Positions 2,101 to 26,943 of a stretch of 26,943 nt of DNA are shown in pieces; position 1 is the first letter of the stretch, and each line of letters begins with the position of its first letter. The DNA is from a virus. The position numbers and the translations under genes are program-made. The stretch lies in IMG/VR virus record IMGVR_UViG_3300035101_000063; one strand, written 5' to 3'. A model generated the notes under the pieces. It did no database searches and had not been told where the DNA came from. It saw only the letters and a program-made list of their open reading frames with translations.

Positions 2101-2316
2101 TCATCCCCATTGACGAATAATCTTAAACCATGTTATGGGGACACGCTCCACAGGCACCCAACCATCGACATATACCCACGCATAATGGGGGTCCGTATCC
2201 AAGCACGACACACGACCATTAGCACCGACAAGGTCCCTACCTGACCCGCTCTTTCCACGGCGAAACCGAATCACGGTATTGAATCGAATAGATTCTTTTT
2301 GTTTGGCTATAGTCAT
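2101..2316 (-). CDS. small hypothetical protein (71 aa) in a GC-rich island; horizontally acquired?
   Basis: Only stretch in the window with clearly elevated GC (Arg codons CGG/CGC, Gly GGC/GGT). Intact ORF with AAAGGA SD 9 nt upstream of ATG. Stop lies 3 nt before next gene start. Could alternatively be a structured RNA. Confidence 0.4.
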   Translation of the reverse strand: MTIAKQKESIRFNTVIRFRRGKSGSGRDLVGANGRVSCLDTDPHYAWVYVDGWVPVERVPITWFKIIRQWG

Positions 2317-2415
2317 TTTATCATCCTTTCATCAGCAACTGCCAACAATAGGTTGCATTCTTCATGCCAAATTTATGAGCACAAAATCATTAGTTTTTTT
2401 AGGACAGAATGGATA

Positions 2416-2504
2416 CTTTTTGCGTGAAAAAATTGCGTACCTTAAAAAACCCAATGATTTCAAATAGAAAAAATTGCGTACTTTATTGACATTTTTGCGT
2501 AAAA
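2416..2504. promoter_or_regulatory. array of four direct TTGCGT(A/G) motifs (cores at 2420, 2433, 2474, 2495), arranged as two 14-nt repeats AAAAAATTGCGTAC flanked by two TTTTTGCGT(G/A)AAA(A/T) copies
   Basis: Exact repeated words read directly in the 213-nt intergenic region immediately upstream (minus sense) of the GC-rich small gene. Plausible operator/iteron array. Confidence 0.45.
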
Positions 2505-2529
2505 TTAAAACCAAACTTATCAAATATTA

Positions 2530-3027
2530 TCAATAACCCAAGTCATAAGGATCCCATCCTATATTAATCTCTCTTTCTCTTTTTTGTAATACATTAACAG
2601 GCTTAACAGGCATTGGCTCAATCCTTACCTCTTGAGGAGAAAAACTATGCATAACTAGTGACCATTGAATAAAATCCAATTCTGACGTCCACCTTGTCTT
2701 AAGCAATTGAGGTGTCAATTTCCATGCCTCTCCTGTTCTTCGAAATGTTTCACGTGAAACATACTCAAGACACGGATAAACCCCACAATATTTTTCCACT
2801 TGTTCATTTGTTGGCCATTCCGGACAAAACTCTCTTTCAACTTTCTCATCTTCAATATCCAAAATTAAATCTTCAGCATTGTAAATACTTTTTAAATCGT
2901 ATTTTCTGTCACAATTTTGAATATGCATTCTCAAAGATTCTATAGCCTCATCACAATCTTTCATGTCATCAAGCCAATCAAATTCACAATTATCTCTCCA
3001 TGTTTCTTTCCATCTAAAAGCATTCAT
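2530..3027 (-). CDS. hypothetical protein (165 aa)
   Basis: Minus ORF preceded by strong SD (AAGAGGG, 8 nt upstream of ATG) and by a sigma70-like promoter plus palindrome. Confidence 0.5.
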   Translation of the reverse strand: MNAFRWKETWRDNCEFDWLDDMKDCDEAIESLRMHIQNCDRKYDLKSIYNAEDLILDIEDEKVEREFCPEWPTNEQVEKYCGVYPCLEYVSRETFRRTGEAWKLTPQLLKTRWTSELDFIQWSLVMHSFSPQEVRIEPMPVKPVNVLQKREREINIGWDPYDLGY

Positions 3028-3148: not shown

Positions 3149-4066
3149 TTATTCTTGACCAGAATCCCCTTCCGATTCAGAATCCCCTTCCGATTCATCA
3201 ACTAAATCTACCAGATATTCGTTACCGAATACAATTTGGTCCTTTTCTCCATCTACAGACTTAAACGCAATAATCCGATATCCCGTTATATCTTCCATGT
3301 GCCTAAATAAGGAAATCGTATCTATCAAATTTGTACTTGACGCTAAATAATCCATACATACTAGAGACAATGCATGACCATCTTTATCAGTCTCACCAAT
3401 ATCCTTGGCACGATTTATCGCATTTGTAACAACTTCATCTTGTCCACTATAGAGACTAAATGCCCTACGAACCAAAGTTTCTCCAGTAGATTGCTGTCCT
3501 TCTTGCCCATCTCCACCAGACCCATCTCCACCAGAAGTTATTCCTTTCTCTTCTTTTTTGGCTCGAGAAATCATTTCTTCTATTTGTTTAAATGTTTTAC
3601 CTTCCACACGCTTTTTCCAAGATTTAGCATTCTCCTTAACTACAAATCCCATCAGCAATCTGCATTTTGCCCATCCAATACCTCTGAAAAAAGCCTGCAT
3701 AGCAGGTGTCATATTTTCAAACCATGCTTGCAATTTTACAAGATATTGAGCCTTGCGAAGTGTAAAATCTAACTCTTGTTCAACATATTCTTTCCAAGAA
3801 TCAAAACCCCAAGAACGATATCTGTTATTAGTATAAACATCAGCTAAAACAACTCCTAACTCCCAATAATTTTCTTCAGCTTTATTTTTTAATTCCAACA
3901 CCTTTTCTCTGATATCAGCAAATTCAACATCAACAATATTGGCATTTTCTACATCACCTACCGAACCCGAACCATCATTGTTGTTAACAACGGTCAATCC
4001 TGCTTCGTTCACTTTTTGAATTCCTTGTTCATCGCTCATCGTACAGCCCTTTCTGTTGTCTGGCAC
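3149..4066 (-). CDS. hypothetical protein with DUF3102-like domain and acidic repeat C-terminus
   Basis: 305-aa minus ORF. Segment YWELGVVLADVYTNNRYRSWGFDSWKEYVEQEL is paralogous to a segment of the 25356..26057 product. Gly/Asp-rich linker. C-terminal ESEGDS x2 encoded by an 18-nt tandem repeat. Confidence 0.5.
   Translation of the reverse strand: MPDNRKGCTMSDEQGIQKVNEAGLTVVNNNDGSGSVGDVENANIVDVEFADIREKVLELKNKAEENYWELGVVLADVYTNNRYRSWGFDSWKEYVEQELDFTLRKAQYLVKLQAWFENMTPAMQAFFRGIGWAKCRLLMGFVVKENAKSWKKRVEGKTFKQIEEMISRAKKEEKGITSGGDGSGGDGQEGQQSTGETLVRRAFSLYSGQDEVVTNAINRAKDIGETDKDGHALSLVCMDYLASSTNLIDTISLFRHMEDITGYRIIAFKSVDGEKDQIVFGNEYLVDLVDESEGDSESEGDSGQE
3161..3196. repeat. 18-nt tandem repeat x2 (AGAATCCCCTTCCGATTC) encoding ESEGDS-ESEGDS
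   Basis: Direct reading; in-frame in the 3' end of the 3149..4066 gene. Confidence 0.8.
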
Positions 4067-4642: not shown

Positions 4643-5680
4643 TTATTTTTTACGTCTATATCCTTTAGGAAAACAAATATCTCTACCAGGACAATATTTA
4701 GGTCTACCCTTACTCTTTAACTGACAATCTTGAAGTCTATCGAATCTATCCTCTAACCATCCATACAAGGACGCCTCATCCTTGAAAAAAGGCTTACCGC
4801 CCTCTACCTCCATTTTATATTTATCGCACATCCTGACAGCTTCTACACACATCAACGCTAATCTTTTCAATCTCTCAACAATACTTTCATCATATAAAAT
4901 CTGATGTTCCATTAATGATGACTTAAAATATGGTACTTCTTTAAATTTATAACCTATACGTGACCTATGAATACCAGTAGCCCACATTCCTAATTGCACT
5001 TGATTAACATGATCTATCCTTGCAGCACCACCTAAACATGGGTCCAAGTCATCCCTTGCTGTTACTTTCTCTGTTTTGAGCTCAAAAACTTCTTCTTCAT
5101 CATCAATCAAAAGTATCGCATCCAATTTTGATACTATACGATACTTTAACATCCTGATTTTCACCTCATCATATTCCCAATCTTTACCTTCCGGCTTGGT
5201 ACCCCAACCCCTAACAATATGACGATCTTCATCATCATTTACTTGATTCCAAAAACTAGACCTAACAAGTTTAAAAATTTTATGCTCAAAATCTTTACCG
5301 ATTGGAACCTCTAGTGGAAAATATTTTTTCCATGCACCTAAAAATTTTACACCCAAACTGGGTAAAGCTGACTTTTGAAATACAGAATGAACGGCTTTAC
5401 CGTATTCCATATTCCAAAGTCCTTCAGCATTTACGATATCATTTATTTTAACAAAAGACTTAATAGCACATAATCTAGGACACCAATATTTTGTACCAGA
5501 AGCATAAAGCCAAAATTCTTTCCATGTTTCATCTTGTGGAACTAATGTCGCTAATCTACTATCAGAGTTATTCTTACTCCATTTTTCTAATAATAAATCT
5601 TGAACACTTGTAGAACGAACAATTGTAAAATTTTCTTTAGCTTCATCAATACTTTTTTTACATATAACATTTCCTAACAT
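4643..5680 (-). CDS. PD-(D/E)XK nuclease, Cas4/RecB-like with Cys cluster
   Basis: Segments ILLIDDEEEVFELKTEK (D...ExK) and QVQLGMW (QhxxY/W-like). One N-terminal Cys pair plus C-terminal Cys (CVEAVRMC ... CPGRDIC) resemble the Fe-S arrangement of Cas4/AddB nucleases. Strong GGAGG SD. Confidence 0.45.
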   Translation of the reverse strand: MLGNVICKKSIDEAKENFTIVRSTSVQDLLLEKWSKNNSDSRLATLVPQDETWKEFWLYASGTKYWCPRLCAIKSFVKINDIVNAEGLWNMEYGKAVHSVFQKSALPSLGVKFLGAWKKYFPLEVPIGKDFEHKIFKLVRSSFWNQVNDDEDRHIVRGWGTKPEGKDWEYDEVKIRMLKYRIVSKLDAILLIDDEEEVFELKTEKVTARDDLDPCLGGAARIDHVNQVQLGMWATGIHRSRIGYKFKEVPYFKSSLMEHQILYDESIVERLKRLALMCVEAVRMCDKYKMEVEGGKPFFKDEASLYGWLEDRFDRLQDCQLKSKGRPKYCPGRDICFPKGYRRKK

Positions 5681-5746: not shown

Positions 5747-6118
5747 TTAATTAATATCACCCCTTCTTCCGGCATCCTTGTCCATTTCCTTAATAAAAAA
5801 CTTTATATGAAAAACCTTATCCTCATTAGAAATACCAGGATAAAGCTGTCTCATCTGCCCCACCCAATGCTCACCATTGGCATATCCATCCATTTCTGAA
5901 ATAATCGGATCTCTCCTAAACATACCAACAGTACCGGGTCTAACCGTCTGCACTTCTATTTTAGCGAATGGCATATTTCTTTGACCATCTATAAATTTTG
6001 AAGTCAAAACAATTTCCCCTCCCCTAACATGTGGACAATTATCACCATATTTCCTAACAATACCACAAGCCTTACCATCCATAATCTGTTTTGTCTCAAA
6101 TCTTGTACATGCAAACAT
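5747..6118 (-). CDS. hypothetical protein (123 aa), possibly ASCH/PUA-like
   Basis: Minus ORF with AAAGGA SD; preceded 21 nt upstream by the CGAACTCGAGTTCG palindrome. Family assignment is weak. Confidence 0.4.
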   Translation of the reverse strand: MFACTRFETKQIMDGKACGIVRKYGDNCPHVRGGEIVLTSKFIDGQRNMPFAKIEVQTVRPGTVGMFRRDPIISEMDGYANGEHWVGQMRQLYPGISNEDKVFHIKFFIKEMDKDAGRRGDIN

Positions 6119-6139: not shown

Positions 6140-6153
6140 CGAACTCGAGTTCG
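6140..6153. repeat. perfect palindrome CGAACTCGAGTTCG (copy 1 of 3)
   Basis: Exact 14-mer; intergenic, between stop of 6189..6749 and start of 5747..6118. Confidence 0.9.
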
Positions 6154-13969: not shown

Positions 13970-13985
13970 GCGAACTCGAGTTCGC
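13970..13985. repeat. perfect palindrome GCGAACTCGAGTTCGC (copy 2 of 3)
   Basis: Exact; intergenic between DnaB-like gene stop and SSB-like gene start. Confidence 0.9.
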
Positions 13986-14139: not shown

Positions 14140-15486
14140 CTAAAATGGTATCCCCTCTTCCTCTTCATTATTTTCCTCTTCTTCAATTTCACCAAACTCC
14201 ATTCTATCAAAATCCCAATGAACCTTTATCTCTGGTTTCTTATATTGACCTCTACGAAGTTTTAAATTTTTAAATTTCATTACTTTATCATCTTTATCAT
14301 CTTTATTTTGTATTAATGCATAAACAGCATGAACATCCTGCCCAATCTCATCAGCTAATGCAATTGTTCCAAGCCTTGCCCCTCCCCCCTTCTTCTCCGA
14401 AAGCTCAGCAGTCCTATTCTGCTGTGCAAAACCTATCGCAGCATAGCCAAGCTCCTTGCAACTTCGCTTCATCCATCCAAGAGCCTCCACGGCTCTTTCA
14501 CGACGATCCCCTTTAATATGTAGGTCATAAATCGAATCAACAGCAACAAGCTCAGCATTACAAGCACGAATTGCAGCATCTATACCACGCGGACTCAAAT
14601 CATCATCAGAATCCATAATCCACAATCCATCCTTACCAGCCTCACCATTAATTGTATTTACAAATTTTTGCTCCATAACAGTTGGAAGTTGACCAGTAAT
14701 AACACTATGGTAACTAACATCAGAATGGATAGTAAAAAATCTCTCAGCTATCTCATCTTTACTCATTTCTGGTGAAACAACCAAGACACGTTTATCTTTC
14801 ATCCAGGCATGTCTACCACATATAACACAGACGAACGTTTTCCCAACTGAAGGTCGAGCAACAAACATAGTAACAGTTTTGGGCCATGCACCTGCCGTCA
14901 TATCATCTATTGTTTTCCACGGAAATGGAATACCCCTATATCCATCAGCAGCCTTTCTATAATTCTCAAGAACCTTTCCTCCAATATCCAATAAATTATG
15001 TGGCATTCTATGCCTAGAAAGGTCCTGTGCTGCATTCAACAGGGATTCAAGACTAGGAGATAAAGAATCTATACCTTCTGCTTTAAATCCATCATAAACA
15101 ACTTTCTGAGCATTATAAATTACACGACGTATAGCACTAGCTTCCCTAACTATATTTGCATAATGACCCACATTTGATGGTGCAGATACAAAATCTGTCA
15201 ATTGCGATAATGCAATTGCACCACCTATATTTTTTAATTGACCTTGCTCTCTTAATCTATTTCCTAATGTGACATGATCAACAGGTATCCCAGCCTCGAA
15301 CAAAGAATACATGCCATAAAAAATTATTCTATTGGAATTTATATAAAAATCTTCTTCATTTACATTAGCAAAAACTTCACCCCAACAATCATTATTCAAA
15401 AGAACAGATCCAAGAACAGCATTTTCAGCTTCTTCATTGTATGGTGGTATATTAGGTCCACCTTTAGAATCGCAAATATTGCTCAT
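14140..15486 (-). CDS. dnaB: DnaB-like replicative DNA helicase with acidic ...EEEEGIPF C-terminal tip
   Basis: N-terminal domain (PPYNEEAENAVLGSVLLNNDCWGEV...NRIIFYGM...IPVDHVTLGNRL...GGAIALSQL), Walker A ARPSVGKTFVCV, RecA-like C-terminal domain. Appended EEEENNEEEEGIPF tail. Confidence 0.85.
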   Translation of the reverse strand: MSNICDSKGGPNIPPYNEEAENAVLGSVLLNNDCWGEVFANVNEEDFYINSNRIIFYGMYSLFEAGIPVDHVTLGNRLREQGQLKNIGGAIALSQLTDFVSAPSNVGHYANIVREASAIRRVIYNAQKVVYDGFKAEGIDSLSPSLESLLNAAQDLSRHRMPHNLLDIGGKVLENYRKAADGYRGIPFPWKTIDDMTAGAWPKTVTMFVARPSVGKTFVCVICGRHAWMKDKRVLVVSPEMSKDEIAERFFTIHSDVSYHSVITGQLPTVMEQKFVNTINGEAGKDGLWIMDSDDDLSPRGIDAAIRACNAELVAVDSIYDLHIKGDRRERAVEALGWMKRSCKELGYAAIGFAQQNRTAELSEKKGGGARLGTIALADEIGQDVHAVYALIQNKDDKDDKVMKFKNLKLRRGQYKKPEIKVHWDFDRMEFGEIEEEENNEEEEGIPF

Positions 15487-21369: not shown

Positions 21370-21383
21370 CGAACTCGAGTTCG
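21370..21383. repeat. perfect palindrome CGAACTCGAGTTCG (copy 3 of 3)
   Basis: Exact; intergenic between lysin-like gene stop (21387) and next start (21355). Confidence 0.9.
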
Positions 21384-26430: not shown

Positions 26431-26943
26431 AACAAATATTATTACTCAATTATAATACAAAATCAACATTTTTAAAATCCAATTCCTTTTCTGCTCCAAT
26501 CCCTTCTATTCCTTTTCTGCTCTTCTACATTTTGCTCTGCAATGCTCTATTCTGTTCCATATCACTTCACATCAGTTCAATTCCTCTCGAATCCTTCTCT
26601 GCTCGAATCTATTCTCTTCCTATCTTTTCCTTTTCCTCTATAACCTATTCACTTCGACTCCGTTCTTCTCCACACCATTTCTTATCACTTCCGTTCCCAT
26701 CTAATCCTTTTCTAACTTTTCCAAACTGATCAACTCAACTCCATCTCCGCTCGACGCCTTTCCTTTCCCTTCCATTTTATTTCCATTCAATTCCAGTGTT
26801 CTCTATTCCTTTTCCTCTCTCAACCAATCGCCTCAACACAGATCCATTTCGTCTCATCTCAGTTCATGTCAGGACTAATCCTTATCCTTTCATCTCAACT
26901 AGCGTCTATTCCCTTCCTTTTCAGTTTAGCTCAAGTCCGTTCT
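26431..26943. repeat. roughly 500-nt ORF-free polypyrimidine (plus) / polypurine (minus) tract with degenerate short repeats ((A/T)TTCCTTTTC(T/C)(G/T)C at least 3 times); GGA/AGGA-dense on the minus strand
   Basis: Plus strand here is almost exclusively C/T with very few G. The only track ORF is an S/L/F/P junk frame. All neighbouring genes point away from it. Confidence 0.7.

Follow-up and report, generated by a model that had tools for sequence, protein, structure and literature searches.

Introduction

Small orphan genes provided with an upstream region of their own are common in phages. Among the described units, those that most resemble the one analyzed in this work are the morons, whose criteria we take from a study of lambdoid phages (e.g., HK97 gene 15; PMC3594210), and the promoter-early stem-loop (PeSL) cassettes of T4-type phages, about 50 of which are present per T4-type genome (PMC2839356, PMC4122927). 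Here, we report on a stretch of 26,943 nucleotides (nt) from a large uncultured phage (IMG/VR record IMGVR_UViG_3300035101_000063), hereafter called the window, in which an open reading frame (ORF) coding for a 71-amino-acid (aa) protein is headed by an intergenic region carrying an array of direct repeats, whose core reads TTGCGT on the plus strand and ACGCAA in the sense of the gene. A first-pass annotation, made from the letters of the sequence alone, described this feature correctly and interpreted it partly correctly. In our opinion, it is reasonably probable that the array and the ORF represent a moron-like accessory insertion of two separable modules, i.e., a portable regulatory cassette and a cargo gene.

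Gene Organization at the Two Loci

The spacer and the ORF lie between a gene coding for a 165-aa protein and an RNA-ligase gene (Table 1), and the same arrangement is found in the close relatives L001–L009 and L099. Both the spacer and the ORF are missing in three more distant syntenic relatives (L017/L018, L025, and L027): in L017/L018 the neighbour gene is 69% identical and a gap of 27 nt separates its stop codon from the ATG of the ligase gene, in L025 the same junction follows a neighbour gene that is 73% identical, and in L027 (51% identity) the gap is of 3 nt. The existence of three syntenic relatives without spacer and ORF implies that the ancestral state was “empty” and that the unit was gained in the ancestor of the window’s clade; on this comparison of gene order, the unit is an acquired, clade-specific insertion. 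Its junctions were compared by eye, and neither terminal inverted repeats nor target-site duplications were found at the ends of the island.

The relatives exhibit other states of the same locus. In L101, the cassette is kept, the ORF is deleted together with its Shine-Dalgarno (SD) sequence, and the cassette adjoins the ribosome-binding site (RBS) of the ligase gene. In L022/L023, a nested insertion after codon 7, made up of an acidic 76-aa ORF and a CGAACTCGAGTTCG hairpin, has entered the 71-aa gene, which is kept and restarted from a new RBS with a new N-terminus.

A metagenome scan for the composite of the repeats R3 and R4 (Table 1) retrieved five contigs (L099, L100, L101, L102, and L103). 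The full island is present in L099; L100, L102, and L103 harbor the spacer only, with 84–85% identity, at a different site after a 169-aa gene (hereafter locus 2, the site beside the ligase gene being locus 1), and the contigs found via the 169-aa protein (L104–L107) carry the same second locus. In all these contigs (L100, L102–L107), the cassette stands directly ahead of either a 78-aa ORF or a pentapeptide-repeat gene, the latter having a GC content of 0.53, a GC content at third codon positions (GC3) of 0.57, and a PF00805 match with E = 8e-84. The contig L108, belonging to the L017-like lineage, is devoid of the cassette and of the whole accessory block of about 3 kb, and after its 168-aa gene come a sigma-70-like promoter and a SNF2 helicase gene.

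A profile of the cassette used with nhmmer recovered the copy of the window (2497..2315) with E = 1e-60 and the copies of the relatives at both loci (L100, L102–L107) with E-values between 1e-57 and 1e-60; no third copy was recovered in this way in the about 1 Mb of collected loci. In every context, the homology between the cassettes ends at the SD/ATG of the cargo. Five different genes stand directly behind the cassette, and seven allelic states (four at locus 1 and three at locus 2) were found in the metagenomes. As read from these alignments, clade-specific accessory DNA begins, at each of two loci, with the cassette as its constant 5′ edge, and both loci display a polymorphism of gain, loss, and replacement in which a variable cargo stands behind a constrained cassette. 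Contigs with locus 1 and contigs with locus 2 come from the same samples (3300076655, 3300076597, and 3300056879), and on this basis the genome has two cassette loci.

Some additional observations concern the surroundings of the two loci. A T4 endonuclease V-like gene (PF03013, 136 aa) lies upstream of the homologue of the 165-aa gene in L005–L007 and L009 (about 8856–9266 in L005), is represented by an 81-aa remnant in L022 (5744–5989), and is missing from the window, which reveals a further insertion/deletion (indel) plasticity at locus 1. The 169-aa gene of locus 2 (L100 6318–6827; L104/L107 5001–5510) shares 74–87% nucleotide identity between contigs whose neighbouring genes share 94–99%; this hypervariability suggests diversifying selection, for which a surface protein or one that recognizes the host would be an example. 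Two small genes of L103, lying in the accessory block that follows the locus-2 cassette, are preceded by a second repeated 5′ element (4972–5049 and 5843–5994, minus strand), which is GC-rich and ends in ...GGC(T/C)GATTCGGCCAGAAAAGGAG. Lastly, the exact 14-nt palindrome CGAACTCGAGTTCG, which closes the nested insertion of L022 on the right, recurs intergenically in this phage, namely at 6140–6153, 13971–13984, and 21370–21383 of the window, at 7144 of L022, in intergenic regions of L103, and at several sites in L001/L002. It may be a terminator or a processing hairpin; GAAC-N4-GTTC is also the pattern of the Gram-positive LexA (Cheo) box.

Table 1. Coordinates, in the window, of the insertion, of its parts, and of the two flanking genes.
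Feature	Position	Strand	Remarks
Whole clade-specific insertion (cassette and cargo gene)	~2098–2510	−	~410–430 nt, between the stop codon of the 165-aa gene and the RNA-ligase gene; boundaries approximate
Portable non-coding 5′ cassette, ~183–190 nt	2315–2497	−	Repeat block at one end, SD and start codon at the other; nhmmer and alignments
Ultra-conserved 93-nt block containing R2, R3, and R4	2405–2497	−	Columns 22–114 of alignment A4
Repeat R1	2492–2504	−	Sense TTTTACGCAAAAA, plus strand TTTTTGCGTAAAA; this locus only
Repeat R2	2467–2485	−	Sense TAAAGTACGCAATTTTTTC; invariant in 12/12 aligned copies
Repeat R3	2426–2444	−	Sense TAAGGTACGCAATTTTTTC; 41 nt from R2; core invariant
Repeat R4	2417–2429	−	Sense TTTCACGCAAAAA; overlaps the end of R3; invariant
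18-nt inverted repeat bracketing R3 and R4	2384–2460		89% complementary; arms 2384–2401 and 2443–2460
Candidate −24/−12 element TGGCATGAAGAATGCA	2354–2369	−	GG 2369–2368, GC 2357–2356
Small hairpin CCT.ATTGTTGG/CTGATGA.AGG, overlapping the SD GAAAGGA (2324–2330)	2324–2353	−	
GC-rich orphan gene; basic, Trp-rich, beta-strand-rich 71-aa protein	2101–2316	−	Composition, coding signal, structure model (AF2)
RNA-ligase gene	1468–2097	−	Directly downstream of the 71-aa ORF
165-aa neighbour gene	2530–3027	−	Upstream of the spacer

Structure and Conservation of the Cassette

The word TTGCGT occurs five times in the 26.9 kb of the window, a number equal to the chance one; four of these occurrences are in the spacer (cores at 2420, 2433, 2474, and 2495). 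The fifth, on the minus strand at 3265, stands isolated. The four-copy array seen nowhere else in the window, as reported in the first-pass annotation, is therefore there, and all the coordinates given for it were correct. The sequence AAAAAATTGCGTAC occurs exactly at 2427 and 2468, the exact copies extending to 19 nt (R3 and R2), and TTTTTGCGT(G/A)AAA makes up the 13-nt copies R4 and R1. The repeats are direct, with cores of 6–8 nt, A/T tracts, and an irregular spacing (13, 41, and 21 nt). A second array was found neither in the window nor across about 40 kb of flanks of the relatives, and a scan of IMG/VR for the 15-mer GTACGCAATTTTTTC retrieved single matches per contig only, as by chance. 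At the position of R1, the sequence of locus 2 is TGTATGAAAAAA. An extra partial copy of the repeat in L101 (780–800; TTTTACGCATTTACGCAAAAAGG) and a duplication of 9 nt (TTTTAATGT) in L002 and L008, at the cassette’s left edge, indicate that this edge of the array is prone to small duplications.

The comparison of 12 copies, six from each locus, revealed that the conservation of the cassette is distributed along it in a strongly uneven way. In the 93-nt block, none of the 93 positions exhibits a fixed difference between the loci, and the same polymorphisms segregate at both of them, which reveals a concerted evolution of the two copies. In the ~35 aligned nt that follow, differences affect about one position in three and an 11-nt indel is present; in the last 57 nt, only 3–4 positions differ, essentially only in the middle of the motif TGGCA(T/C)G-N4-ATGCA. 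The orthologous spacers differ by 0.9–2.4% substitutions vs. 5.7–7.7% at the third positions of the flanking genes (Fisher p from 0.044 to 4e-5); this evolution, 3–7 times slower than that of the flanking third positions, suggests that the spacer has a function.

The search for promoters and terminators gave a mixed picture. No sigma-70-type site was found in the spacer (2317–2529), and no terminator-like site (a G/C-rich stem followed by a T-run) was found either in the spacer or after the ORF. The 165-aa gene has upstream of it, on the minus strand, a PeSL-like unit (3141–3087) composed of a sigma-70-type promoter close to the consensus (TTGACA-16-TAAAAT, 11/12; 3141–3114) and, after it, a stem-loop (3101–3087) with a T-run. 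Similar GTTGACAAAC...TAAAAT promoters occur at about 14139 in the window and in L103 and L108.

Within the cassette, the motif TGGCA(T/C)G-N4-ATGCA is conserved 40 nt upstream of the ATG, with conserved flanks and a variable N4. In the comparison with the core TGGCACG-N4-TTGCW of the sigma-54 consensus mrNrYTGGCACG-N4-TTGCWNNw (PMC2725144), TGGCATGAAGAATGCA matches at 10 of the 12 positions and the TGGCACGCGTAATGCA of most locus-2 copies at 11. Both dinucleotides, GG at −24 and GC at −12, lie in register, 10 nt apart. The number of sites expected by chance per 27 kb on both strands is 0.42 for a score of at least 10 and 0.037 for a score of at least 11; for one strand of the spacer, the corresponding chances are about 2e-3 and about 1.5e-4, before correction for the handful of promoter types tried. 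With transcription predicted to start near 2345, the repeats would come to lie at about −72 to −159. This is the usual distance for enhancer-binding activators, whose typical sites are inverted repeats. Promoters of the Bacteroidota type (−33/−7), of the extracytoplasmic function (ECF) and FliA types, and of the extended −10 type were also compared by eye, as were ComK, CodY, and IHF-type sites, and none of them fitted convincingly.

Concerning RNA signals, the window contains no tRNA and no transfer-messenger RNA (tmRNA), and no Rfam match reached the gathering score; the search of RNA families proposed in the first-pass annotation returned, within 1900–2700, only two chance-level matches (E = 4–7). 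The fold energies are ordinary, with z-scores of −0.78 and 0.11 for the two strands of the spacer and −0.37 for the ORF. In the A/T-rich 18-nt inverted repeat, compensatory changes are absent and pairs are broken in all the locus-2 copies, so that a conserved RNA helix in 2384–2460 is not supported; the hairpin overlapping the SD has 9 of its 11 pairs invariant and one GU pair changed to GC, with no covariation.

The 71-aa ORF and Its Product

The GC content of the ORF is 0.486, vs. a mean of 0.326 (sd 0.031, maximum 0.377) over the 42 other ORFs of the window (z = 5.1), and its GC3 is 0.444 vs. a mean of 0.212 (maximum 0.315; z = 5.45); a 200-nt segment at 2101–2300 has a GC content of 0.495. 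These values bear out the GC richness and the G/C-ending codons noticed at first sight, and the GC3, at twice the value of the phage, speaks for a foreign origin of the ORF. Only one other 216-nt stretch of the window is equally GC-rich (about 14379, GC about 0.50); it falls within the DnaB-like helicase ORF (14140–15486) and probably represents the conserved Gly/Ala-rich core of the helicase, not foreign DNA.

The proper SD and the tight packing mentioned in the first-pass annotation are also there: GAAAGGA lies 7 nt ahead of the ATG, and 3 nt (2098–2100) separate the stop codon (2101–2103) from the ATG of the ligase gene. In the lineage of the window, 13 nt with the own SD of the ligase (AAGGAGTAAGGAA) have been lost (2097–2103 in the window vs. 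10214–10235 in L002), and the ORF codons TGG GGA now act as its SD; together with the position of the ligase ATG, 3 nt past the 71-aa stop codon, this implies translational coupling. In L025, the start codon of the ligase is ATA (3714).

Seven distinct DNA alleles of the ORF were recovered from the relatives. In codons 10–71, ten sites are variable, nine of them being synonymous third positions and one a conservative I/V change. When the ORF is compared with those of four relatives, 6–7 of the 71 third positions differ and none of the 143 first and second positions does; the comparison with L022 gives 7/66 and 1/131, respectively. This codon-periodic and nearly all-synonymous variation indicates that the ORF is translated and is under strong purifying selection; judged from its substitution pattern, it is a real protein-coding gene, and it is kept in its own clade, the conservation in relatives being a point on which the first-pass annotation had made its interpretation depend. 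Besides, at its third positions, the ORF has diverged among the relatives no less than the flanking genes (about 6%), from which it follows that the island is older than the split of these relatives. Thus, of the recently acquired gene suggested in the same annotation, the acquisition agrees with the empty sites of L017/L018, L025, and L027, and the recency is not supported. A 53-aa ORF starting with TTG across the spacer and the antisense ORFs were also considered and discarded; they exhibit no codon periodicity, and their frames are broken by the 11-nt indel and by the different left edge of locus 2.

No match of the 71-aa protein was found in Pfam, PHROGs, NCBIfam, or PADLOC. A k-mer search revealed as its sole relatives the members of its own 90% cluster (seven, on about 30 contigs), with no homologue outside its phage clade and none among about 15 billion predicted proteins; a protein search of IMG/VR and of the GTDB genomes gave neither a relative nor a donor, and the island had no blastn match in the phage collection. 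The 12 HMMER matches obtained among 1.84 billion representatives are giant repeat proteins, several of which were inspected; they share a 21-residue strand motif from two unrelated repeat types (MBG_2 and PKD) and were rejected because the summation over repeats inflates their E-values. The matches with the designed “Cake” propellers of the PDB were rejected as well, being sums of less than 3 bits per repeat/blade.

The protein is basic (isoelectric point, pI, 10.3) and contains four Trp residues. Two AlphaFold2 (AF2) runs gave predicted local distance difference test (pLDDT) values of 47 and 53, and in the latter model five strands, with a short helical turn before the last one, follow the order of an SH3-like barrel. 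Foldseek against PDB and BFVD retrieved nothing significant (best E-value 0.15, all E > 0.1, template modelling (TM) scores < 0.5); KOW, Hfq, SH3, Tudor, and integrase C-terminal barrels make up most of the weak matches, all insignificant. The profile and structure searches advised in the first-pass annotation led, therefore, to no family and to no significant fold. As a lead only, the model suggests that the protein is probably a small SH3/KOW/Sm-like barrel binding nucleic acid. In L022, the first nine residues are replaced and the remainder is kept, which delimits a functional core at residues 10–71.

Other Features of the Window and Its Relatives

Every gene of the window is on the minus strand. 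The window corresponds to the replication/recombination module of the phage and encodes a DnaB-like helicase, a loader, a UvsX-like recombinase, a resolvase, the RNA ligase, and methyltransferases. Contigs of this phage group reach 172 kb, and no close cultured relative was found; the phage is large and probably lytic. The relatives of the RNA-ligase gene in IMG/VR are non-syntenic and uninformative. The last ~510 nt of the window (26431–26943) contain stops in all three sense frames and show an extreme strand bias (A 40%, G 32%, T 21%, and C 6% on the gene-sense strand), being rich in GGAA/GAAAGG-type motifs.

Discussion

According to the idea of a moron-like insertion of two modules, the first module would be a non-coding cassette of about 190 nt, giving regulatory and translation signals to the gene that stands behind it. 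The ACGCAA repeats would represent the binding sites of a transcription factor, and TGGCA(T/C)G-N4-ATGCA would be the core of the promoter, possibly of the sigma-54 −24/−12 type, the repeats being placed where enhancer-binding activators might act. The homology between the cassette copies might allow recombination to add, delete, and swap cargo. The second module would be the cargo itself, i.e., in the window, a basic, beta-rich orphan protein of 71 aa under strong purifying selection.

Several points weigh against this scheme, most of them concerning the promoter. The sigma-54 match came after several other promoter types had been tried, and a two-mismatch search with a shorter sigma-54 consensus gives chance-level results over the whole window; the repeats are direct and irregularly spaced, unlike typical inverted enhancer sites, and neither an rpoN/sigma-54 gene nor an enhancer-binding protein (PF00158-type) is present in the annotated stretches of these phage contigs. 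The promoter activity of the cassette is itself predicted at the sequence level. In the absence of a terminator behind the ORF, the unit falls short of the autonomous transcription unit that a strict definition of morons requires. The low divergence of the cassette could derive in part from gene conversion rather than from selection, and most neighbouring genes of locus 2 are conserved at least as well as the cassette. Finally, the fold of the protein is assigned on a low-confidence model with a best Foldseek E-value of 0.15. We consider the −24/−12 reading of the conserved element as tentative and unlikely; rather unlikely, in turn, is the bolder scenario of a mobile sigma-54-type, enhancer-dependent module that was duplicated to put horizontally acquired genes under the control of a host or phage AAA+ activator binding ACGCAA, with the 71-aa protein as a possible new barrel on the same repeats.

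A different possibility, already contained in the first-pass annotation, which had attributed to the array a regulation dedicated to this one gene, is that the array is an operator of the 71-aa gene, the protein, for instance, binding the ACGCAA repeats and regulating its own synthesis. The array and the ORF were gained together relative to the outgroups, the array is constrained, and the protein is small and basic, with nucleic-acid-binding small barrels as its weak structural neighbours, all of which would fit an operator of this kind. However, the same array heads other genes at the second locus (the 78-aa ORF or the pentapeptide-repeat gene), it is unchanged in L101, where the ORF is deleted and the cassette precedes the RNA ligase, and in L022 the 76-aa gene and a terminator-like hairpin stand between it and the ORF. 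Its presence at a second locus and its persistence without the ORF imply that the array is not dedicated to the 71-aa gene, and we regard the operator as decidedly improbable; it is possible that the 71-aa protein regulates both cassette copies in trans. One could also imagine a cassette without any regulatory role, that is a duplicated 5′ untranslated region or spacer kept alike by gene conversion, with the cargo co-transcribed from upstream. The polymorphisms common to both loci, the absence of a recognisable sigma-70 promoter in the cassette, the strong sigma-70-like promoter of the 165-aa gene with no terminator between it and the ORF, and a locus-2 cassette conserved about as well as its neighbours are in agreement with this hypothesis, which appears quite unlikely to us nonetheless: conversion alone would hardly produce such an uneven conservation (0/93, about one third of the middle part, and 3–4/57), the orthologous spacer evolves 3–7 times slower than synonymous sites, and the cassette stops exactly at the SD/ATG in every context.

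Two further interpretations concern the nature of the region rather than its regulation. GC-rich islands in AT-rich phages are often RNA genes, and the 93-nt block is extremely conserved; the first-pass annotation accordingly listed a structured RNA among its alternatives. A structured or small regulatory RNA in the GC-rich segment or in the repeat block seems very improbable, given the lack of tRNA/tmRNA genes and of Rfam matches at the gathering score, the ordinary fold energies, the zero covariation with broken pairs, the codon-periodic substitutions of an ORF whose synonymous sites vary freely, and the lack of a terminator in the 93-nt block. The term iteron-like, used for the array at that stage, recalls instead a replication origin within the replication module, and direct repeats with A/T tracts, in a window encoding a DnaB-like helicase, a loader, a UvsX-like recombinase, and a resolvase, would be compatible with it. 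Such an origin is scarcely credible: the array is missing from relatives with the same replication genes (L017, L025, and L027), by which the idea is largely refuted, it is duplicated beside a hypervariable gene near a contractile-tube-like gene, apparently in virion-gene territory, and its cores are short and irregularly spaced.

With the moron-like insertion of a portable cassette and an exchangeable cargo, which we favor, this phage is a clear example, taken from nature, of the way in which small accessory genes are acquired, lost, and exchanged in a large uncultured phage. This would be a fairly ordinary route of accessory-gene gain and swap in phages, here associated with an unusual promoter region. 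If the promoter were really enhancer-dependent, it would represent an unusual phage way of tying accessory genes to a signal-responsive activator and also a compact portable regulatory part. The 71-aa orphan protein, strongly conserved within its clade, is a candidate for a host-interaction or anti-defence function.

Comparison with Known Systems

Like morons, the unit is extra DNA with respect to related phages, lies between two conserved genes, differs in GC content from its surroundings, and consists of a small accessory gene with its own upstream non-coding region. Unlike morons, it has no downstream terminator, its ORF being 3 nt from the RNA ligase, and no recognisable sigma-70 promoter, in the place of which a candidate −24/−12-like element (10–11/12) is observed; moreover, its upstream region is itself repeated and portable. 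Since the phage is probably lytic, a moron-style expression from a repressed prophage does not apply.

The likeness to PeSLs lies in a repeated intergenic cassette that extends from near the upstream stop codon to the SD/start codon of an ORFan, at sites where close relatives differ by insertions, deletions, and replacements, and whose homology could mediate modular shuffling. The cassette described here, however, measures about 190 nt, vs. the short promoter-plus-hairpin unit of PeSLs, lacks both the sigma-70 −35/−10 elements and the G/C-rich terminator stem, contains 3–4 ACGCAA direct repeats, and is known in two copies.

With sigma-54 promoters, it shares the GG/GC dinucleotides 10 nt apart in TGGCA(C/T)G-N4-ATGCA, with conserved flanks and a variable N4, and repeated motifs at about −72 to −159 with A-tracts between them; in contrast with sigma-54 enhancers, its repeats are direct and not arranged in inverted pairs. 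In the literature, no precedent was found for a portable sigma-54-type element in a phage genome. A parallel can also be drawn with the integron platform (Pc promoter and attI), where a constant 5′ expression region serves exchangeable, promoterless cargo ORFs; here, no integrase was seen and no attC-like sites follow the cargo, whose junctions fall at the ATG or within the first codons and not at a core site of recombination. On the whole, the unit is best described as a mobile regulatory cassette with a moron-like cargo, a member of neither the moron nor the PeSL family.

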